Shown piece by piece: positions 798 to 10,531 of a stretch of 64,000 bases of DNA. The stretch spans positions 256,001 to 320,000 of the forward strand of contig JBEPYN010000001.1 of NCBI GenBank assembly GCA_041641305.1, given 5' to 3'. How positions within the stretch are numbered: position 1 is the first letter of the stretch; every line of letters starts with the position of its first letter. The position numbers were made by a program, and so were the translations under genes. This DNA is from Nitrososphaerota archaeon. Lineage in GTDB: Archaea; Thermoproteota; Nitrososphaeria_A; Caldarchaeales; Caldarchaeaceae. A model generated the notes under the pieces. That model was not told the DNA's origin, did not search any database, and worked only from the letters and a program-made list of their open reading frames with translations.

Positions 798-2246
798 CTA
801 TATCACAAGTTTCGCCGAGAGGTAATTCTTGAGCTCCTCTATTTTCACTCGCTCCTGTTTCATAGTGTCTCTGTCCCGTACTGTTACCGTGTCATCTTCT
901 ATGGTTTGGTAGTCGACTGTGACGCAGAAGGGTGTGCCTATCTCGTCCTGTCTCCTGTATCTCCTGCCTATGCTTCCTTTTTCGTCGTAGAAAGTGTCAA
1001 AATCCAGCTGCAGCATGGCGTGTACCCGTTGTGCAACCTCTGTTAGCTCAGGTTTGTCGAGTAGGGGGAAAACCGCCACGGTGTAAGGCGCTATATATGG
1101 GTGAAGACGAAGAACAGTTCTACCATTTTCCTCAACATATCCAAGCTCAAGTAATGCGAGAAGGCTTCTGTCAACACCCATAGAAAGCTCAAAGACATGA
1201 GGCAGGAAACTTTCTCCGTCTTCTGTTATACGGAGGTCTACGCCGCTAACTCTCTGATGCCCACCGAGGTCATAGTCGGTTCGGTTGTTGCAGGCGACGA
1301 GCTCCATCCACCCAGTCGAGGTAAGAACCTCGAGGTCCCAAGCCTCGGCTGCATAGAACGCCTTCTCATCATCGCCGAGCCTCCTGAACCTCAACCTATC
1401 GGAGCTTATACCCAAACGGAAGTAAAAGTCCTGCACTAGCCAAAGATAGTAGGCGACGAGCCAGCTCGAAACCAGGCCTTTCTCAACAGCTTGTCTACAT
1501 GTGACTTTTTCGACCCTTTCCCCAACCCACATGTTCAACTCTTTGCCGGCAACTTCTCTGGCTTTCGCGGGGTCGTTGGCTGTTCTTGGGTTGAAGAAAA
1601 CCTCTATCTCAGCCTGTGTAAACTCCCGCAGCCTGACAAGTGATTGACGAGGCGATATCTCGTTGCGAAAGCTTTTCCCGACCTGTGCCAGTGGAAGCGG
1701 TAGCTTCCGTCTCGAAATCTTGTAAATACGTGGAAAATCTATGAATATGTTTTGACATGTTTCGGGCCTAAGATATCCTTCGTCTCCTGATGCTCCCAGC
1801 GAAACACCGAACATCATGTTGAATAGGGATACCTTGTCCAGCTCGCCGCCGCAGGTTGGACAACGGAAACCATGCTCTGCAATAATTTCATCAATTTTCT
1901 CGGGCTGAGTACGTTCAGGAACCTTGATGCCGAGCTTCTCCTCCAGCAGCCTGTCAATTCTATAAACAGCTTTGCATGACCTGCATCTTGTTATTGGGTC
2001 GGCAAAGGTTGCAAGATGCCCAGAGGCAATGAACACTGCTTTGGGGAGAATCTGGGAGCCGTCTAAGAGAAGCATCTCATCCCTGCGAACCATTAGACGA
2101 TGCCAAGCGTCGATGAACTTGCGTTTGAGAAGAGCTCCGAGATGTCCGTATTCCCAGAAGCCGGCTGGAGACCCTGGGTAGATCTCCGCCGATGGAAAGA
2201 AAAACCCGCGCTCGAGACCAAGTTTAACAATTTCCTCGAGGCCCAT
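798..2246 (-). CDS. glyS: Glycine--tRNA ligase (alpha2 type)
   Basis: LRPETCQ, GKSFRNEISPR..L.RLREFTQAEIE, SIGRRYRRQDEIGTPFCVTVD motifs. Confidence 0.97.
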   Translation of the reverse strand: MGLEEIVKLGLERGFFFPSAEIYPGSPAGFWEYGHLGALLKRKFIDAWHRLMVRRDEMLLLDGSQILPKAVFIASGHLATFADPITRCRSCKAVYRIDRLLEEKLGIKVPERTQPEKIDEIIAEHGFRCPTCGGELDKVSLFNMMFGVSLGASGDEGYLRPETCQNIFIDFPRIYKISRRKLPLPLAQVGKSFRNEISPRQSLVRLREFTQAEIEVFFNPRTANDPAKAREVAGKELNMWVGERVEKVTCRQAVEKGLVSSWLVAYYLWLVQDFYFRLGISSDRLRFRRLGDDEKAFYAAEAWDLEVLTSTGWMELVACNNRTDYDLGGHQRVSGVDLRITEDGESFLPHVFELSMGVDRSLLALLELGYVEENGRTVLRLHPYIAPYTVAVFPLLDKPELTEVAQRVHAMLQLDFDTFYDEKGSIGRRYRRQDEIGTPFCVTVDYQTIEDDTVTVRDRDTMKQERVKIEELKNYLSAKLVI

Positions 2247-2257
2247 GTGGGCTCACG

Positions 2258-2950
2258 CTATACAACGGCTCTTCCGCAGTTGGGACATGTTCCGTTTATG
2301 TTTACGTAGGCGTCTAAACACCCCGAGTGAAACACGACGCCGCAGGATGAGCATTTGACAGCGTTTTCAGCCTCCACAGAGGTGTAGCAAATGGGGCAGA
2401 CAATCCCTTCCTCAACATCGCCAGCTACTTCGAAAGAGGTCGTCTCCAAAGACTGGGATGCTCCAGCCGTGGCCCCGCCCACTCCCCCGTAACTCTGATA
2501 AGGTATCTCGACGACCCGCGGCCGTGTCAGTAAAGCCACAATGCCGAGAGCGAGTATCACTACGGCCGAGAAAAGGGCGACGAAGAAACCTATCCCAGGC
2601 TCGCCGGCTACGCTAAGCGCCGGAACTCTGATGAACCCGAGATATAGGGGGGATACTAGGGCCATCCCACCTCCTAGTAGCGATAAGGCCACTAAAATTG
2701 TTCGCACGGACGTGACACGCTGGCTAAAAGATGTCACCAGCAAGGACAAACCAGCCAAAACACCCCCTAAAACGGATAGAAGCAGTGTCTCGGGCAATAT
2801 GTATCCGCTGAGGACAGAGGTGGAGACAGCGTCAGCCCTAACCGTGTACCATGGAAGAAGAAGCGTCAACACATGTACGCTGCCAGCCAAAGCCAGCACC
2901 GACCCTATCTGAAAAAACCGAATAAGCAACCGTCTCTCTGACACAACCAT
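2258..2950 (-). CDS. Four-TM membrane protein with C-terminal C4HC3 RING finger (putative membrane-anchored E3 ligase)
   Basis: Four hydrophobic segments, then CPIC-x11-CSSC-x4-H-x2-C-x10-CPNC. ORF is open to 3022; ATG 2950 preferred because a TTTTATA lies about 30 nt upstream. Confidence 0.8.
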   Translation of the reverse strand: MVVSERRLLIRFFQIGSVLALAGSVHVLTLLLPWYTVRADAVSTSVLSGYILPETLLLSVLGGVLAGLSLLVTSFSQRVTSVRTILVALSLLGGGMALVSPLYLGFIRVPALSVAGEPGIGFFVALFSAVVILALGIVALLTRPRVVEIPYQSYGGVGGATAGASQSLETTSFEVAGDVEEGIVCPICYTSVEAENAVKCSSCGVVFHSGCLDAYVNINGTCPNCGRAVV

Positions 2951-3078
2951 GCCGCTAAAAACCACATGCTCCACCATATAAAAACATGCCCTACGAGAAA
3001 CCCAAAAACTATCCTTGGCCATTCTCCATCTAATACGACCAAGTAGAGTTTATAACCACGTAGACCATCCTGTCACAC

Positions 3079-3912
3079 ATGGGTCTGCTCCCCAGAAAGT
3101 CCGACAGCTTGGCCGACCTCCGGAAAGAGGTGGCGGCCATACGGGTACAGGTTATAGAGAAACTTGAGGAAAGAATAAGTCTGCTCGAGGAGGCTTTGGC
3201 CAAGCTTAAAGAAGATGTCCGCCAGGTTCTTGAACAGGTTTCGTCTCCCCAGAGGACACTTTCATCGCTGCAATCCGTTGTGGAGAAAGCGTATCTACTT
3301 GATCAGGCGCTGGACTCGTACAAGGCTCTTACAGAGGAGGTTCGGTCCCTTAGTGAGAGTCTGCATGAGACGGCCGACCTTATTTCCAACCAACGGTCTG
3401 AACTGTTTAAGGAGACGCAGAGGCTTTTGCAGGAAAGGGAGAGTTTGTCGAGGCTTCGTGAGGAGGTGCTGAAGTGGCGTGAGGAGCTTGAGACCAAGGA
3501 GAAACAGATAGCGGAGGCCCAGGAGACGCTGAAGCAGCTTATCACCAAGAAGGAATCACTAGAGGCTGAGATAAATGTTCTGACGGAACGTTACTTTGCC
3601 GCGTTTGAGGAGGCTCAGAAAAAGCTGGAAAACTTCGGAAGGGAGATGGATAAGCTGTTCAAGTTGCGGGAGATACGGATGGAGAGGATGATACGTAGGG
3701 AGAGAGAGCTTGAGGAGCGTCTCGCCGAGCTGGAGAAAAGCAAGACCGAGGCCGAGGCCCTAATAGAAACATCCAACAAGCTCAGGGAAGAGGTCAAGAA
3801 GCTGGAGTCCCTTAAGGAGTCGCTGGCAAGAGAGATAGCTGATATGGAGAAACGGAGGAAGGAGCTTAACGAACTAATAACAGAGATGAGGCGCGCATTC
3901 CTGACATCATAG
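3079..3912 (+). CDS. Long coiled-coil protein, function unknown
   Basis: 277 aa, E/K/L/R-rich heptad pattern throughout. Confidence 0.8.
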   Translation: MGLLPRKSDSLADLRKEVAAIRVQVIEKLEERISLLEEALAKLKEDVRQVLEQVSSPQRTLSSLQSVVEKAYLLDQALDSYKALTEEVRSLSESLHETADLISNQRSELFKETQRLLQERESLSRLREEVLKWREELETKEKQIAEAQETLKQLITKKESLEAEINVLTERYFAAFEEAQKKLENFGREMDKLFKLREIRMERMIRRERELEERLAELEKSKTEAEALIETSNKLREEVKKLESLKESLAREIADMEKRRKELNELITEMRRAFLTS

Positions 3913-4218
3913 CTTCAGCGCCTTCTTTATCTGGGCAACAGTGGCGGACAGCTCCCCAAGAGCGTTGAGAATCTCTCTAACGTCGTCGCTAAGCACCATC
4001 AGCTGCTCCTCTATGTATTTTAGCCTGCGCTCGAGGCCCTCGGGCACTTGGCTGCTCTCAGGCAGATTTTCCAGTCTCTCCTTCATCTTGTCAATCTCTT
4101 CTATAACCTCTGCGAGGACTTCGGCCAACTGTCGGACACCCTCGAACCTTGCGACCGCTCCTTTAGGCGTCTCCAGGTAATCCAGCTCAATAACTTTCTC
4201 GTTCTCTTCTCCACTCAT
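3907..4218 (-). CDS. Small coiled-coil protein, last gene of the ubiquitin operon
   Basis: 103 aa; starts 1 nt after the RING E3 stop; two heptad-repeat helices. Confidence 0.8.
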   Translation of the reverse strand: MSGEENEKVIELDYLETPKGAVARFEGVRQLAEVLAEVIEEIDKMKERLENLPESSQVPEGLERRLKYIEEQLMVLSDDVREILNALGELSATVAQIKKALKL

Positions 4219-4219
4219 T

Positions 4220-4450
4220 TCACATCTCTACCAACGGCCTTCGGCAAAGCGGGCACGTCTGCCTAACCACGAGCCAGTCATCGAAACAGGCCATGTGGCC
4301 AACTGCTCCACAGTGAGGACACGAATACGTTTTCTCATTCCCCATCTCCAGCCCACATATCACGCAACTCTCCTGCTTAAGCCGTTGCTTCTGCTCCTCA
4401 AACGGGTTCCAGAACCCTGCGTTAATCTCCTTAATTACCAGCCTCAACAA
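4220..4450 (-). CDS. Small RING finger protein (ubiquitin E3, srfp-like)
   Basis: CVIC-x11-CPHC-x4-H-x2-C..W..CPLCRR; overlaps the E1 3' end. Confidence 0.92.
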   Translation of the reverse strand: MLRLVIKEINAGFWNPFEEQKQRLKQESCVICGLEMGNEKTYSCPHCGAVGHMACFDDWLVVRQTCPLCRRPLVEM

Positions 4451-5630
4451 GCCTCACCTTTACAGCAACCGGTGTTGCTCTTCTGCTTGAATGGATATAA
4501 AGTATGTCACCGTCGACTATGCCCGCTGACTCTATCTCCATATCATCGCTTAACAATTTTGCACCATGCTGTAACCTCGTGTCCGGGAACATGAGCAGGT
4601 TAGATAGCCTCTCTCTCAAATCGGCGACAGTCTCGTCTGGCGAGACGTTAACCTGCATAGGCTTATCTTCATCGTAGCCGCATACATGGCAGTTAATGTT
4701 TCTCTCCAGCTTTATCCGCGTAAGCCTTCCCTTCAGCCCGTCGAAAACCATCATCCCGTTCAACGGCCTGCCCAAAGAACCTTTATGCAGTATTCGGACG
4801 ACCTCGAAAGCAGCCAAGCCGGAGACTGTAGCCGATATGCTCTGTAAAGCAGGCATCTTGGGGTTGAGCAGTGAGCGGAGCTGTATAACCTGGTCTCGGA
4901 GACCCTTATCCATTTGGTCTAACACGGTCTGTGGAGCAAACTTAATGTCGTAAACAGTCTTGATATTGTATTTGAAGAGTGCCTCAGCCTCTGAAACTTC
5001 CAGTACTATGCCTCGTTCACTCAGCTCCTTTACGAGGTCGTTTGGGGTGCGGCGGCGTAGAGAGCATTCGGACGCCTGTATGTCGGCGGGAATAAGGGCC
5101 TCTGCGTGGCATTCGAGGCAGCTTGTAACACGAGGTATCACAGTTTGAACATTGCCATAATATCCGTCTGTTGCGACGTCAACAAGCGCAGTTCCAACAT
5201 GCACCGCCATCGAGTTTATCCATCTTCTAGTAGGCCAGTTGTCAACAGCGGAAACTATGACATCAACCTCTCCGAAGGTTTCTTCGGGGATTCTTCGAAC
5301 ATCTGTTTGTAAGCCTTTTACTTTTACGAGAGGGTTCATCATGGATATTTTTTTCTCGGCCGTAGATGCTTTTGGCTGGCCTATGTCTTGGTCGGTGTAG
5401 AGCATCTGGCGGCTGAGGTTGGAGAGCTCAACGTAGTCGTTGTCTATGAGGAGCAGCTCACCCACGCCCATAAGCGATAGGTTTTTCGCCACCTCGCATC
5501 CCAGCGCCCCCACACCCGCGATAACCACCCTCCCCGACAGGAGCCTGCTCTGGTCCCATCCCTCGAGCCTTAGCTGACGGTCGTACCTCGACAGAGCGTC
5601 AACCTCGCCCAAAACTACAAACCCTTCCAA
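4431..5630 (-). CDS. Ubiquitin-activating enzyme E1-like (ThiF family with C-terminal ubiquitin-fold domain)
   Basis: RYDRQ, GVGALG, D.D.VELSNLSRQ, Zn pairs CLEC/CHVC, candidate catalytic Cys in ASECSL, C-terminal beta-grasp (SPDETVADLRERL...GIVDGDILYI). Confidence 0.95.
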   Translation of the reverse strand: MEGFVVLGEVDALSRYDRQLRLEGWDQSRLLSGRVVIAGVGALGCEVAKNLSLMGVGELLLIDNDYVELSNLSRQMLYTDQDIGQPKASTAEKKISMMNPLVKVKGLQTDVRRIPEETFGEVDVIVSAVDNWPTRRWINSMAVHVGTALVDVATDGYYGNVQTVIPRVTSCLECHAEALIPADIQASECSLRRRTPNDLVKELSERGIVLEVSEAEALFKYNIKTVYDIKFAPQTVLDQMDKGLRDQVIQLRSLLNPKMPALQSISATVSGLAAFEVVRILHKGSLGRPLNGMMVFDGLKGRLTRIKLERNINCHVCGYDEDKPMQVNVSPDETVADLRERLSNLLMFPDTRLQHGAKLLSDDMEIESAGIVDGDILYIHSSRRATPVAVKVRLVEAGN

Positions 5631-6121
5631 CGCTTCTTTCCAAAAGCCTGCTCAGGCGTAGCAAATGTTTCAACAAACTGTCTAACACGGGCGTAGAATA
5701 GGTCGGGCCTGTTCTTGTACTCAAATGCTGCGACGGGGTTAAGAGGATCCTCGGGGTTGGGGTTCGTCAGAAGGTTTCTCAGCGACTCGATAACCGCCAC
5801 AATGCGGAGAGAAGGTGACCAATGGTCTTTGAAAATTGATTCACAAACCCTTGCAGGGACGCTGTCCGAGAAATTTGGGTGCCATATACGTGTGTGCCAT
5901 ATAACATCTGGCGGGAAATATGGATAGGACCTCGGAATGATTATTTCTACTCTGAAGTAGCCTCCCTCATATTCGCCTGAGCCAACTATAACGCCTTCGT
6001 AATGGGTTAGGTCGTTTTCAACAGGTGTGAAGGTGGGCTCATTCTCCTGAATCAACGCATACTCGAGAGCCAGCCGCCTGTACCACGCGTTTTCAGGCAG
6101 CTCGACGTATTGGCTCTCCAT
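5615..6121 (-). CDS. Ubiquitin-conjugating enzyme E2
   Basis: YEGG.F, YP..PP, IWHPN...RVC (catalytic Cys), WSP, L..PNPEDPLN. Confidence 0.96.
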   Translation of the reverse strand: MESQYVELPENAWYRRLALEYALIQENEPTFTPVENDLTHYEGVIVGSGEYEGGYFRVEIIIPRSYPYFPPDVIWHTRIWHPNFSDSVPARVCESIFKDHWSPSLRIVAVIESLRNLLTNPNPEDPLNPVAAFEYKNRPDLFYARVRQFVETFATPEQAFGKKRWKGL

Positions 6122-6356
6122 ATCCGCCCACCGTCCTCGTTATGAGTACGAATTTGTCTCCATCGGCTACTCCGAGGCTCTCAAGTGTTTCCGTGTCTTT
6201 GAGAGCTCTTCCTTTATAGGTTAGACGTGTGGTGTCGGGTGGAAGTTTCTTCATGGCGCAAACCTTCGTCCGAACTGCTCCGACGGTGGCGTTTGGAGCA
6301 ACCTCGAGCTCTAAGGGTGAACCTCCTCCGACAGCTGGAACGATCTTAATCTTCAT
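6093..6356 (-). CDS. Ubiquitin-like modifier precursor (GG plus 9-aa propeptide)
   Basis: MKIKIV...TVGAVRTKV...RLTYKGRALKDTETLESLGVADGDKFVLITRTVGG-YGEPIRRAA; TATA box about 30 nt upstream of ATG 6356. Confidence 0.95.
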   Translation of the reverse strand: MKIKIVPAVGGGSPLELEVAPNATVGAVRTKVCAMKKLPPDTTRLTYKGRALKDTETLESLGVADGDKFVLITRTVGGYGEPIRRAA

Positions 6357-6497
6357 TTCTGAACTCCTGATAACCACAGCGTATATAAGGATTAACCAGA
6401 AGTCAAACCTCGAGCCAGCTTACAAAATACCTCGGTAATATTCAATATCGTTTCTTGCAGCGTCATTTTTATTACCGTCCGAGTCATCGGTCTCCCA
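6357..6497. promoter_or_regulatory. Divergent promoter region for the ubiquitin operon and Rpn11
   Basis: CTTATATA on the minus strand at about 6382-6389; TTTTTATTA on the plus strand at about 6466-6474; each about 25-30 nt from a start codon. Confidence 0.55.
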
Positions 6498-7106
6498 ATG
6501 CGTGTGCGTATCTACCCACTGGCCTTGGCGAAGGTTGTAAAGCACGCTGCCTCAAGCCTCAACCGAGAGGTGGCGGGCCTCCTCGTCGGCAAATCGGCTG
6601 GGAAAGTTCTGGAGATATGGGACGCGGTCACAGGTGAGCAATATGGTACCCCTGCTTACGTGCAGCTTGATGAGCTGGTCATGGCTAGGGTTGCGGAAGA
6701 CCTCTCTAAATCGGATAAAAACCTGTACATAGTCGGATGGTATCATTCTCATCCGGGGCTTGATGTTTTTCTATCGCCGACAGACATCGACACGCAGAAA
6801 AGATACCAGGCCATGTACAGCAAGGCCGTCGCGCTCGTGGTGGACCCTGTTGAGTATGCCAAGACACGTAGAATCTCTGCTCTTAAGTTCAAGGTTTTCC
6901 AGATATCGAAAGAGGGGAAGGTTGTTTCTCTTCCTGTAAGCATTGGAGTACACAGAGCTAAGCTTCTTGAAAGCACTCTCCACGCCCTGAGCACTTTTGA
7001 TTTTATACATATCTTCGGAGAGTCTTCCAGTAAGACGAGGGAGAAGCCTTCGTTGGATGAACAGGAGAGTTTGCTGGAAAAAGCTAAAAAGTTATTCGGA
7101 GTGTAG
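6498..7106 (+). CDS. rpn11: Rpn11-like JAMM metalloprotease (deubiquitinase / pro-ubiquitin processing)
   Basis: EVAGLLVG...IVGWYHSHPG...FLSPTDIDTQ..YQ...AVALVVDP. Confidence 0.93.
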   Translation: MRVRIYPLALAKVVKHAASSLNREVAGLLVGKSAGKVLEIWDAVTGEQYGTPAYVQLDELVMARVAEDLSKSDKNLYIVGWYHSHPGLDVFLSPTDIDTQKRYQAMYSKAVALVVDPVEYAKTRRISALKFKVFQISKEGKVVSLPVSIGVHRAKLLESTLHALSTFDFIHIFGESSSKTREKPSLDEQESLLEKAKKLFGV

Positions 7107-7137
7107 AAGAGAATAGCTGGGACGGGGTCGCTGAAGC

Positions 7138-7929
7138 TTGCCGAAAAAAATCGTTCTCCGCATAAAGCCGTCGACGCAGCATCAAGAGACCTCTCCAGAC
7201 ATAGAGATGGTTACTCCTCAACCTTCACAAGAGGAACAACCTGCTAAAGAAGAGAATGTGAAACCTGTTGAGGAGCCTGTTCAACAGCCGGTTGGTGACG
7301 ACCTTGACGCGGCTCTAAAAATGTATGAGGAGCTGATGCGAGAGGTTGAACGGCTGCGCGGTCTCGACCGTAACTTCATGCTTTACTGCATCAAAATGGA
7401 GGAGCTGAGACCTCAGCTGGTGAGAAACATTTTGGGCAGACTTGCCGAGAAAAGGAACGCGTTGCTGGAGAAAAGTGAAGAGGTTTTGGAGAGGCTTAAG
7501 GCGGCGAGAGAAGCCATAGGCTCAGAGTTTGCCCAAGTAGAGGAGGAGCTGATTTGGTCCAGCATCGAGCTAAACACCATGCAGCTTGAGAAGGATACAG
7601 ACTCTGATAAGGGTGTCGGATTAAGGGAGGAGCTTGAGGCAAAGATACCTGAGCTAAGAAAAAAGCTCGCAAGCCTACGAAACAGGTTAAAGATGATTGA
7701 GGAGATGGTGAAACAGCTCTCTGACCTACCGCGCAACATAGCAGACATGACGACAAATAAGGAGGAGCCGGCCAAACTTTTCGAGGAAATCAAGAAAAAA
7801 TACATGCTATCATATGGGCAGCGCGCCGAGGCTGTTGCGAGGGCGGAGGTTGAGAAAATCGCTCAACAGGAGTCGATACCGCGGGAGTATGCTGTTATTA
7901 TTCTCTGGAAAAGCATGTCCAACCGTTAA
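7138..7929 (+). CDS. Coiled-coil protein with low-complexity N-terminal linker, function unknown
   Basis: 263 aa, TTG start 31 nt after rpn11; P/Q/E-rich linker, long helices, small C-terminal helical domain. Confidence 0.75.
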   Translation: MPKKIVLRIKPSTQHQETSPDIEMVTPQPSQEEQPAKEENVKPVEEPVQQPVGDDLDAALKMYEELMREVERLRGLDRNFMLYCIKMEELRPQLVRNILGRLAEKRNALLEKSEEVLERLKAAREAIGSEFAQVEEELIWSSIELNTMQLEKDTDSDKGVGLREELEAKIPELRKKLASLRNRLKMIEEMVKQLSDLPRNIADMTTNKEEPAKLFEEIKKKYMLSYGQRAEAVARAEVEKIAQQESIPREYAVIILWKSMSNR

Positions 7930-8324
7930 AGCACTGGCCTGAATTTTACGCCATAGATTATTAGCTTCGACTCGCCGTCTACACGGATTTTTCTCACGAC
8001 CGTTTCGACATCCATTCCAACTGTAAGCTCTGATGGTTCGCAGTCTGTCATCTGACCTATTACCTGCGTGCCGTCGGGCATCTCAACCCATGCTACAATG
8101 TATGGAACATTTTTCTCAAGACCTGTCTGAGGTTGATAAACTACGGTGAAATGCTTCAGTTTGCCGTGGTTGGCGAGCCTATCTCTTTCAAGTCTGCGTG
8201 AACCACATTTTCTACATATCTTCCGAGAAAACGGGTTGAAGTGGCCGCACTGTGTGCAACGGTTTCCCTCAAGCCTGTAGAGATAGGGGCGGAGACGCCA
8301 GTATGAGGATGGCCGGGTTGACAT
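7926..8324 (-). CDS. DUF35 Zn-ribbon/OB-fold protein (thiolase-HMGS scaffold)
   Basis: CTQC..CRKC zinc ribbon, PYIVAWVE, GQMTD, YGVKFRP; in an operon with the thiolase-like gene and HMGS. Confidence 0.92.
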   Translation of the reverse strand: MSTRPSSYWRLRPYLYRLEGNRCTQCGHFNPFSRKICRKCGSRRLERDRLANHGKLKHFTVVYQPQTGLEKNVPYIVAWVEMPDGTQVIGQMTDCEPSELTVGMDVETVVRKIRVDGESKLIIYGVKFRPVL

Positions 8325-8325
8325 G

Positions 8326-9483
8326 CTACACCCACTCCTCTACAACGGCAACTGCTGAGAAGGAGCCGAGTCCAGCCATCGAGGACACAAGACCCGCCTT
8401 AGCGCCGTCGACCTGATTTTTTCCAGCGCGTCCAGACAGTTGCAGAAAGCTTTCAACCAAGGCGTAGAGACCCGAGGCCCCTACCGGGTTCCCGCGGCCC
8501 TTCAAACCACCGAATGTGTTGACAGGCACCTCACCCGACAGCGACCACCTGCCTTTACGCGCGAGATGACATGACTCACCGGCCTCTGCCAACCCAATAG
8601 CTTCAAGAGAAAGCGGCGTCAACAAGCTGTAGCTATCATGAACTTCCACGAAGTCAAGATCAGACACCTTTCTCCCCGCCATCTCCAAAGCCCTCTGAGA
8701 AGCCAGAGATAGGCTCCTCAGCCATAGAGGGTCTTCGCGGTCAAACGGAGAGAGATAATCCGTGGCCGCACCAATGCCTGAAACCACAGCCTTGTAGCCG
8801 TCTGTTTTCTGGGCTGTTTCCAGTGACGTGATTACAACAGCGGCTGCTCCGTCCGCCGGAGCAGTTGTCTCCAGCCGCCTAATTGGTTCTGCTACGCTTG
8901 GCGAGTTTACGACTGTGTCGAGGGTGATTTTGAACTGGTATTGAGCGTGCGGCACGGTTTGAGAATGCTCATGGCTGAGGACTGAGAAGTAAGCAACATC
9001 TTCATGCTCCAGCCTGTTGCGTTTCAAATACTCTTTGTAGAGTAGAGCCGCTTCGGCCAGTTGTGTCACTCCAAGTGCAGCAACAGTTTCCGCGGGCTCC
9101 TCCGTCGTGAGCAGTGACACGTAATCCTCGGAAGTGGCCTCAGACATTTTTTCGCCGCCGACAACGAGGACAGATTTGTATAGGCCGGATGAAACAGCTG
9201 CGACGGCGGCTATTGCTGCAGCCAGGCCGGAGGCCCCGCCGGCCTCAACCCTTGAGGCGGCCACACCTCTTATCCCAAGCTCTTCCGCGAGATATGCTCC
9301 GATGTTGGACTGCTCCTGCAGAACCTGCCCAAATGTGTTTGAGACATATACCGCGTCTACTGCGGATATGCCAGCGGAATCGAGTGCTTGTACCGAGGCT
9401 TCCGCCATAAGCTCTGTCAAGCCTTTGTCCCAGTGCTCCTCAACCTTCGTCAACCCAGCGCCTACCAACGCAGCCCGCAACAC
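8326..9483 (-). CDS. Archaeal thiolase-family protein (catalytic Cys/His apparently absent)
   Basis: VLVVGGEKM, DGAAAVV, EVHD, PVNTFGGLK.RG.PVGASG; VEAGGASG replaces VEAACASG. Confidence 0.85.
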   Translation of the reverse strand: MLRAALVGAGLTKVEEHWDKGLTELMAEASVQALDSAGISAVDAVYVSNTFGQVLQEQSNIGAYLAEELGIRGVAASRVEAGGASGLAAAIAAVAAVSSGLYKSVLVVGGEKMSEATSEDYVSLLTTEEPAETVAALGVTQLAEAALLYKEYLKRNRLEHEDVAYFSVLSHEHSQTVPHAQYQFKITLDTVVNSPSVAEPIRRLETTAPADGAAAVVITSLETAQKTDGYKAVVSGIGAATDYLSPFDREDPLWLRSLSLASQRALEMAGRKVSDLDFVEVHDSYSLLTPLSLEAIGLAEAGESCHLARKGRWSLSGEVPVNTFGGLKGRGNPVGASGLYALVESFLQLSGRAGKNQVDGAKAGLVSSMAGLGSFSAVAVVEEWV

Positions 9484-9484
9484 G

Positions 9485-10531
9485 CTACACCCTTATCTTC
9501 TCCCTGAATTTGAGGTAGGTCGAGTAATCGATCGGCTTTCTGCGGCTGAGCAGTTGGCTGAAGCTCGGGCCCCTGCCGCGTTTCTCCTCCACGCCGTCGC
9601 AGACAGTTAACACGAAAGAGTCGCTTCCAGCTCCCGAGCCATAAGAGGTCATCAGTATACGCTGACCCGGCTTAGCTATGTCTAAGACCTTTGCAAGACC
9701 AATCATCGAGCAGGCGGCATAAGTGTTTCCGACCACGTCAGCCACTATGCCGGGCTTCACCTTCTCAACGGGAATGGAAAGTATCTTTGAGACCGCGAGA
9801 GGGAATTTTACGTTAGGCTGGTGGAAAACAAAGTAGTCTATGTCGGTGACGGTGAACCCGTTTTCCTCGAGCACGGTCTTGACAGCAGAAAGGGTGTGGT
9901 GGAAGTAGGCTGGTTCCCCTGTGAAGCGGGACCCATGCATCGGATACCGTTCATAGCTTCTTCTCCAGAAGTCAGGAGTGTCGGACACGTATGATGTCGA
10001 GTATTCGAATTTCGCTACACAGTCTGAGCCGTTTCGTCCTATGAGGAAGGCCGCGGCCCCGCTTGCCGCGGTGTATTCGAGGGCATCCCCAGGCCTCCCC
10101 TGAGCTGTGTCAGCTCCTATTGCAAGCCCAAACTCAATCCTCCCTGTCTCGACGAGAGCTGTAACCATCTGCATAGCCTCTGTCCCCGCTTTGCAGGCGA
10201 ACTCGAAATCAGCGGTGGTCACGTGGCGGGATACACCGAGGATTTCGGCGACCAACGTGCCAGAGGGTTTGACCGCATATGGCTTTGACTCTGTTCCCAC
10301 ATGAACCGCCTGAACCCTTGAAGGCTCCACATCAGCCCTAGCCAGAGCCATTCGAGCGGCCTCGGCGGCCATTGTTATAGTGTCTTCATCCAAACCCGCC
10401 ACTGCCTTCTCTTTGACAGGCAGGTCGGCGGAGGATTTCCCCCAGACCCTTGCTATCTCCTCACCAGCAATCCTATACCTGGGGAGATAGCAACCATAAC
10501 CATGAATAGCCGCGTCCCTTATCTTCGGCAT
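9485..10531 (-). CDS. Hydroxymethylglutaryl-CoA synthase (archaeal)
   Basis: GTESKPYAVKP, EFACKAGT, FHQPN.KFP, GNTY, SYGSGAGSD. Confidence 0.95.
   Translation of the reverse strand: MPKIRDAAIHGYGCYLPRYRIAGEEIARVWGKSSADLPVKEKAVAGLDEDTITMAAEAARMALARADVEPSRVQAVHVGTESKPYAVKPSGTLVAEILGVSRHVTTADFEFACKAGTEAMQMVTALVETGRIEFGLAIGADTAQGRPGDALEYTAASGAAAFLIGRNGSDCVAKFEYSTSYVSDTPDFWRRSYERYPMHGSRFTGEPAYFHHTLSAVKTVLEENGFTVTDIDYFVFHQPNVKFPLAVSKILSIPVEKVKPGIVADVVGNTYAACSMIGLAKVLDIAKPGQRILMTSYGSGAGSDSFVLTVCDGVEEKRGRGPSFSQLLSRRKPIDYSTYLKFREKIRV

Follow-up and report, generated by a model that had tools for sequence, protein, structure and literature searches.

Four conserved accessory genes beside the ubiquitin operon of Caldarchaeales, including a tetraspan RING protein as candidate membrane-anchored ligase

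Introduction

Does the best-studied archaeal ubiquitin system consist of five proteins, or do the genes that surround it belong to it as well? We addressed this question at a locus in a 64,000-nucleotide stretch of contig JBEPYN010000001.1 (hereafter the window, whose coordinates we use throughout; relatives are labeled G for genomes and L for loci), from a hot-spring archaeon, a Caldarchaeum species that is sister to C. subterraneum. Nine genes lie here between glyS and an HMGS operon: TM-RING on the minus strand, CC277 on the plus strand, CC103-srfp-E1-E2-ubiquitin on the minus strand, and Rpn11-CC263 on the plus strand. Ubiquitin, E1, E2, the RING protein srfp, and the Rpn11-like protease form the core system; TM-RING, which combines transmembrane (TM) segments with a RING, and the coiled-coil proteins CC277, CC103, and CC263 are the accessory genes.

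Nunoura et al. (2011) first described the five-gene system in C. subterraneum (PMC3082918). Hennell James et al. (2017) reconstituted the cascade on an artificial substrate, Rad50, in a study in which physiological substrates could not be determined (PMC5654768), and Fuchs et al. (2018) solved the Rpn11 structure (PMC6043591). E1 charges E2, srfp stimulates transfer, and Rpn11 matures and removes ubiquitin (PMC5654768, PMC6043591). Both biochemical studies used artificial substrates. The C. subterraneum papers treat a soluble, minimal five-protein system, to which the window adds four genes; we found no description in the literature of the TM-RING membrane domain or the three coiled-coil genes, apart from a single passing statement that the operon adjoins "a second E3 protein" (PMC6043591).

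We propose, with a probability of roughly 0.55, that the locus combines the known ubiquitin, E1, E2, srfp, and Rpn11 system with an order-wide module made up of a membrane-anchored second E3 and a coiled-coil module tied to srfp. The core is already known; the accessory module is undescribed and well conserved. Its four genes provide named partners with which the reconstituted system can be extended. Should TM-RING prove to be an E3, then a prokaryote has membrane-anchored ubiquitin ligation, and the best-studied archaeal system exceeds its "minimal" five proteins.

Core and accessory genes in this genome

All nine open reading frames (ORFs) have the positions, strands, and sizes reported in a first-pass annotation of the window, which had also assigned the core to the known aigarchaeal system. 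This assignment holds: the five core genes are orthologues of C. subterraneum CSUB_C1473-1477, with the same genes in the same order at 88 to 99% identity, and the ubiquitin matches the solved C. subterraneum protein structures (2mqj, 6fnn). The sister genome itself (G009) shares the gene order of the window, accessory genes included, with proteins 87 to 99% identical. Compared with G009, all nine genes have ratios of nonsynonymous to synonymous substitution of 0.01 to 0.10, and the four accessory genes are single-copy and under purifying selection. Pfam detects zf-RING_2 in 2258-3022 and 4220-4450 and ThiF, UQ_con, ubiquitin, and JAB in the core genes; matches to CC277, CC103, and CC263 are to coiled coils only, all below threshold. 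The E2 is the sole gene with an E2 or UEV (ubiquitin E2 variant) fold found in this genome.

A tetraspan protein with an srfp-type RING

The claim that the second RING protein is membrane-anchored was borne out. The AlphaFold model of TM-RING (mean predicted local distance difference test [pLDDT] score 88) contains four helices, with a beta hairpin following TM1 and a further strand ahead of TM4; it comprises a claudin/PMP22-like domain (residues 5 to 141), a disordered linker, and a C4HC3 RING (residues 185 to 225). In structure searches with VIA and Foldseek, all top matches belonged to the claudin superfamily (claudins, TARPs, Cav gamma subunits, and GARLH4), with Z scores of 12 to 14, for example 13.5 over 145 residues at 3.3 Å. 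Helical bundles can give Z scores not far from these, yet all top matches come from one superfamily and the strands are correctly placed. Foldseek E-values go no lower than 2e-3. As modeled, then, the membrane domain is a claudin/TARP/LHFPL-type tetraspan fold with an outer beta sheet formed from loops 1 and 2.

TM-RING shares with the claudin/PMP22/TARP/Cav-gamma/LHFPL superfamily the four-helix bundle, the hairpin after TM1, the strand before TM4, and an invariant Trp after TM1. It differs in its first outer loop, which has two strands only, in its low sequence identity (6 to 19%), and in its fusion to a RING. Given that it has no W-GLW-C-C signature, no four-stranded first loop, and no Pfam match in this domain, it is not a member of the claudin family proper. 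That an archaeon joins a claudin-like fold to a RING is also relevant to where this fold originated. The TM2-TM3 loop carries a net charge of +2.4 and the first outer loop −1.2, a bias that places both termini and the RING in the cytoplasm. A membrane domain with a cytoplasmic RING is also the layout of the eukaryotic membrane RING E3s Hrd1, Doa10/MARCH, and RNF/PA-TM-RING, although we found no homology between their membrane domains and that of TM-RING. We know of no eukaryotic membrane RING E3 in which a claudin fold is fused to a RING; in the MOSMO-MEGF8-MGRN1 complex, a RING ligase works jointly with a claudin-like tetraspan.

The RING itself connects TM-RING to the core system. All eight cross-brace zinc ligands are invariant in 34 sequences, with spacing as in srfp, and a comparison of HH profiles matches the two RINGs at 99%. 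The residues that would bind E2 are Ile in 32 of 34 sequences, an aromatic (Trp in 29, Tyr in 5), and Pro in all 34, and conservation at these three positions exceeds that in srfp. The Ile and Trp/Tyr positions are equivalent to srfp I30 and W58, both of which are required for srfp activity (PMC5654768). No RING other than TM-RING and srfp was found in this genome; the two lie within 1.8 kb of each other, and nearly all of 75 genomes have two RING genes. We consider it likely that TM-RING acts with this E2.

If so, TM-RING would bring ubiquitin-loaded E2 to the inner face of the membrane. Its tetraspan domain might bind membrane complexes from the side, in the manner of TARP, Cav-gamma, and LHFPL subunits, and in this way select membrane or membrane-near substrates. 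For tagged proteins, the likeliest fate would be extraction by Cdc48 (present in this genome) or PAN and then proteasomal decay.

Distribution and linkage of the accessory genes

The first-pass annotation had taken the four extra genes as further components of the ubiquitin system, and their distribution within Caldarchaeales agrees with that of the system. E2 was found in all 60 Caldarchaeales searched. Among 75 Caldarchaeales genomes, CC103 is present in 71, CC277 in 70, CC263 in 70, and Rpn11 in 73. TM-RING was found at full length in 52 of 54 Caldarchaeales, whereas 346 other Thermoproteota yielded no full-length copy, a distribution that matches the clade that has the E2. All named CC263 loci are in metagenome-assembled genomes of Caldarchaeales type (Caldarchaeum, Pelearchaeum, Terraquivivens, Benthortus, Geocrenenecus, and Calditenuaceae). 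The three accessory genes tested were not found outside the order in searches of Thermoproteota (Asgard genomes were not searched directly); for CC103, two weak coiled-coil matches were the only ones.

Gene order is informative where the block breaks. Three families retain the block in full. In a fourth, ubiquitin-E2-E1 has parted from a segment consisting of srfp-CC103, convergent CC277, and divergent TM-RING-glyS; that segment is whole in three of four genera and further split in Calditenuis. In four families, CC103 and CC277 keep company with srfp and TM-RING, even away from ubiquitin-E2-E1. CC103 and CC277 are adjacent in 70 of 70 genomes and srfp and CC103 in 67 of 69. For comparison, about 13 of 97 convergent or divergent flanking pairs from other families are adjacent in this genome too, a crude background that includes shadow ORFs and comes from loci chosen around the core. 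CC103 and CC277 probably work together, and we lean slightly toward their serving the RINGs.

CC263 is the least secure member of the module. It adjoins Rpn11 in 45 genomes, including lineages in which Rpn11 has left ubiquitin, lies apart in 23 (one clade), and is unresolved in 1; it is a possible Rpn11 adaptor, and that it serves Rpn11 is a tentative suggestion with somewhat less than even odds. The ubiquitin propeptide (6093-6122) is variable and is missing in many relatives (L043, L044, L046, L049-L059), in which ubiquitin ends at GG78. Because Rpn11 is kept where the propeptide is missing, it must be needed for deconjugation and not for maturation alone. Local rearrangements are seen at L041:10253-12265, L045:10302-11146, L046:13820, L055, and L222; they include insertions between E2 and E1 (Terraquivivens), in one genome an inverted glyS, and in G043 a ubiquitin gene that has left E2-E1 and is still beside Rpn11.

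A number of observations weigh against the proposed reading. Some concern linkage. The housekeeping flanks are present as first annotated, but they do not serve as a neutral frame: glyS, DUF47-endA, HMGS-thiolase-OB, and Lrp, which are unrelated to ubiquitin, are old members of the same ancestral block, and synteny preserves glyS too. TM-RING always precedes glyS, and in Calditenuis it stays with glyS and leaves the other three; it is linked more tightly to glyS than to CC277. In the 23 genomes in which CC263 has parted from Rpn11, it stays with the HMGS genes, and two Calditenuis genomes separate srfp from CC103. Overlapping stops and shared promoters can preserve gene order without common function, and because the co-distribution of the accessory genes spans one clade, it counts as one event.

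Other observations concern the RINGs. At the linchpin position (srfp R69), which is Arg or Lys in 36 of 37 srfp sequences, TM-RING has Gly in 19 of 34 sequences (including this genome), Lys in 11, Gln in 2, and Asn in 2. Some active RINGs lack a basic linchpin; without the conserved Arg, TM-RING may depend on srfp as a partner RING or may work slowly. Two Thermoproteota genomes that are 87 to 93% complete, and in which no E2 was found, encode membrane proteins with the same C4HC3 RING (TM-bPH2-RING). Their similarity to TM-RING (34%) is on a par with that of srfp (32%), and a RING tree is unresolved and does not place TM-RING beside srfp. The srfp profile also matches the archaeal ribosomal protein aS34 over the RING (9fhl, E 2.4e-4). 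A RING of the srfp type is not diagnostic of E3 activity. Finally, srfp is active in vitro without any accessory protein (PMC5654768).

Much of this would be expected if the accessory genes were hitchhikers, that is, order-specific housekeeping genes (for example, for cell shape or the envelope) held in place by shared promoters and overlapping ends, with a TM-RING finger that is structural or binding and not an E3. We judge this unlikely. Against it stand the position of both RINGs of the genome within 1.8 kb, E2-binding residues conserved better than those of srfp, and CC103, which is co-oriented with srfp across a 1-bp gap and remains its neighbor where a whole family has the two parted from E1. 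As a separate observation, the TM-bPH2-RING genes (L232:4273-5211 and L233:4099-5025) directly precede an ATPase-like gene of putative pilus or archaellum type.

The coiled-coil proteins

The three remaining accessory proteins had all been described as coiled coils. CC277 and CC103 have a heptad period of about 3.5 along their length, whereas CC263 is a mixed helical bundle. CC277 begins with a short, amphipathic, basic tip with the conserved motif M-(G/S)-hydrophobic-hydrophobic-G-x-K-K and also contains a conserved FKLREIRLERL segment. CC103 begins with an acidic strand-turn-strand hairpin and an invariant T-P-x-G, followed by the coiled coil. The model of CC263 (pLDDT 82) has a disordered arm, a three-helix coiled-coil bundle, and a small C-terminal helical cap; its sequence has a basic N-terminal strand (PKKIVIK-like), an acidic disordered linker, and a conserved EGIPREYA in the C-terminal domain. 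Fold searches with CC263 returned generic coiled coils only, and an exhaustive profile search gave 14 strong clusters and no bridging relative. Atlas searches found nothing for CC263 and only its own cluster for CC277, whose relatives are listed under PF28019.

The conserved features of srfp and CC103 suggest how they could meet. srfp has a conserved basic N-terminal strand with an invariant G-x-W (in full G-x-W-x-W, ahead of the first Cys pair), for which no published function accounts, and the N-terminal strands carry net charges of +1.7 in srfp and −4.1 in CC103. The acidic hairpin of CC103 could thus bind the basic strand of srfp, and CC103 could pair with CC277 to form a rod that the amphipathic N terminus of CC277 might hold at the membrane. 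We infer every binding step of this mechanism and of that given above for TM-RING. A complex prediction for srfp, CC277, CC263, and CC103 scored 0.02, a value with no bearing for or against.

The same strand invites a different explanation, in which srfp is Rbx1/Apc11-like, with its N-terminal strand inserted in a CC103/CC277 scaffold to make a minimal cullin-RING-like ligase, and TM-RING is an independent ligase. The charge complementarity and the G-x-W-x-W motif would suit it, and alignments of RBX1 chains to the srfp profile begin at position 2 and so take in the strand (E 1e-4 to 4e-4). However, ordinary monomeric RING-H2 proteins outscore RBX1 by far against that profile, the N-terminal profile alone retrieves neither RBX1 nor APC11 at E 10, and no cullin (PF00888) matched at E 1 in this 99% complete genome, although a very remote form could escape. 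We regard this explanation as improbable.

Alternatively, the coiled coils could be the substrates: CC277-CC103, perhaps with CC263, would form a filament or scaffold that is attached to the membrane and serves division or cell shape, ubiquitinated by both RINGs for timed removal, much as the proteasome removes CdvB in Sulfolobus. [quoted passage not shown] The coiled-coil proteins contain 8 to 10% lysine, a content ordinary for coiled coils of thermophiles. In vitro, srfp modified coiled-coil lysines of Rad50 (PMC5654768). In three families, at least five genera have Vps4-cdvB at a distance of 4 to 9 kb from parts of the locus; that link passes through Lrp and the HMGS operon, and here the distance to cdvB-Vps4 is about 68 kb. 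Profile similarity to ESCRT-III is lacking: HHalign probabilities for CC277, CC103, and CC263 were 0.7, 6.8, and 1.4%, against 0.4, 17.7, and 1.3% for the reversed profile, and we rejected them as ESCRT-III proteins. We hold it quite unlikely that the coiled coils are substrates.

Two further identities were considered. Matches of the coiled coils to SMC/Rad50 are compositional and far below the cutoff, and ATPase motifs are absent; we rejected this identity. A fold match raised CC263 as the missing aigarchaeal CdvA (9s9g, Z 9.9 over 130 residues at 3.2 Å, level with generic coiled coils). Profile comparisons gave mixed results and did not uphold it: HHalign gives 60% over 120 columns against 32% for the reversed profile, with CC103 scoring 57%, and the CdvA profile selects another gene (described below).

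Gene calls and transcription units

The nine genes probably form four transcription units, as read from the sequence: ubiquitin-E2-E1-srfp-CC103, Rpn11-CC263, CC277 alone, and TM-RING-glyS (Table 1). We revised two starts, that of TM-RING (most likely at 2950, giving 230 and not 254 residues) and that of ubiquitin (6356), from homologue starts and TATA-like boxes 22 to 26 nt upstream, the boxes being identified by eye with no chance comparison. Scans for sigma-70 promoters and terminators were at chance level, with models unsuited to archaea. The left flank is glyS (798-2246, minus strand), and the right flank consists of DUF35-OB, thiolase, and HMGS genes (7926-10531, minus strand).

Table 1. 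Genes and intergenic regions of the locus, in window coordinates
Feature	Position	Strand	Description
TM-RING	2258..2950	-	230 aa; reading frame continues open to 3022; RING and four TM segments
Divergent promoter region, TM-RING/CC277	2951..3078	.	TATA-like box in each direction, by eye
CC277	3079..3912	+	Continuous coiled coil; its stop overlaps the CC103 stop
CC103	3907..4218	-	Strand-turn-strand motif, then coiled coil; last gene of the ubiquitin-E2-E1-srfp operon
srfp	4220..4450	-	RING E3; CSUB_C1477 orthologue; PMC5654768
E1	4431..5630	-	ThiF and C-terminal ubiquitin-like domain; CSUB_C1476 orthologue
E2	5615..6121	-	CSUB_C1475 orthologue, 98% identical
Pro-ubiquitin	6093..6356	-	87 aa; GG78 and 9-residue propeptide
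Divergent promoter region, ubiquitin operon/Rpn11-CC263	6357..6497	.	Read from sequence
Rpn11-like JAMM deubiquitinase	6498..7106	+	CSUB_C1473 orthologue; PMC6043591
CC263	7138..7929	+	Coiled-coil bundle protein; probably cotranscribed with Rpn11

Comparison with ERAD and ESCRT systems

The suggestion that the locus follows a logic like that of endoplasmic reticulum-associated degradation (ERAD) or ESCRT sorting found no support. Searches of this genome, run without a positive control, gave no match to DER1 (Derlin) or VPS28; no second E2-fold (UEV) gene was found, and EAP30 (Vps22/36) matched below the cutoff only. The three ESCRT-III genes of the genome lie away from the locus. A strict ERAD or ESCRT-sorting pathway is not supported.

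In Asgard archaea, ubiquitin is clustered near ESCRT-III and Vps4 (PMC10936438, PMC9192718), as in several Caldarchaeales genera (Vps4/cdvB at L035:15356-16455, L037, L055, L101-L103, L223, and L228; proteasome beta genes are nearby in family f2). In contrast to the Asgard clusters, the Caldarchaeales link is loose and is lost in this genome, which has no UEV, Vps28, or above-threshold EAP30 match. It is doubtful that all nine proteins form one physical system. Less probable still is a multisubunit, membrane-tethered ligase, with a claudin-fold RING receptor and srfp on a CC103-CC277 rod, joined by a tethered deubiquitinase (Rpn11-CC263) and acting on membrane complexes or on neighboring CdvB/Vps4. 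If true, it would link ubiquitin to membrane remodeling in TACK archaea with no need for ESCRT-I/II and with an origin apart from Asgard.

Two other genes were noted. CdvA is reported absent from Aigarchaeota (PMC6053391), and Pfam CdvA matches none of 29 Caldarchaeales genomes. At G000:C1:320075-320914 (minus strand), 75 bases past the right end of the window, a 279-aa protein has an N-terminal zinc ribbon and, after an acidic linker, a domain like CdvA, which scores E 1e-5 against our own CdvA profile but misses the Pfam cutoff; its layout recalls arCOG03733 of Thermoproteales (PMC10936438). At G000:C1:566814-569727, a Cdc48/VCP-type AAA gene is followed immediately downstream, in the same orientation, by an ESCRT-III paralogue.

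Ubiquitin-type cassettes in other relatives

In five genomes with JAMM-ubiquitin-E2-E1 operons, no srfp-type RING was found. Two such operons, from other Thermoproteota families (L230:4046-8607 and L231:3674-7371), encode a 525-aa JAMM protein that includes an Ig-like part as well as a single hydrophobic segment. In a Calditenuis-type genus (g8), a second ubiquitin-like cassette (L224:2881-6531 and L225:3417-8816) comprises a fusion of ubiquitin with a divergent E2, together with a JAMM protease and an E1-like gene (L225); a small RING-like gene is nearby. Upstream of the L230 operon lies a zinc-ribbon gene with four TM segments.

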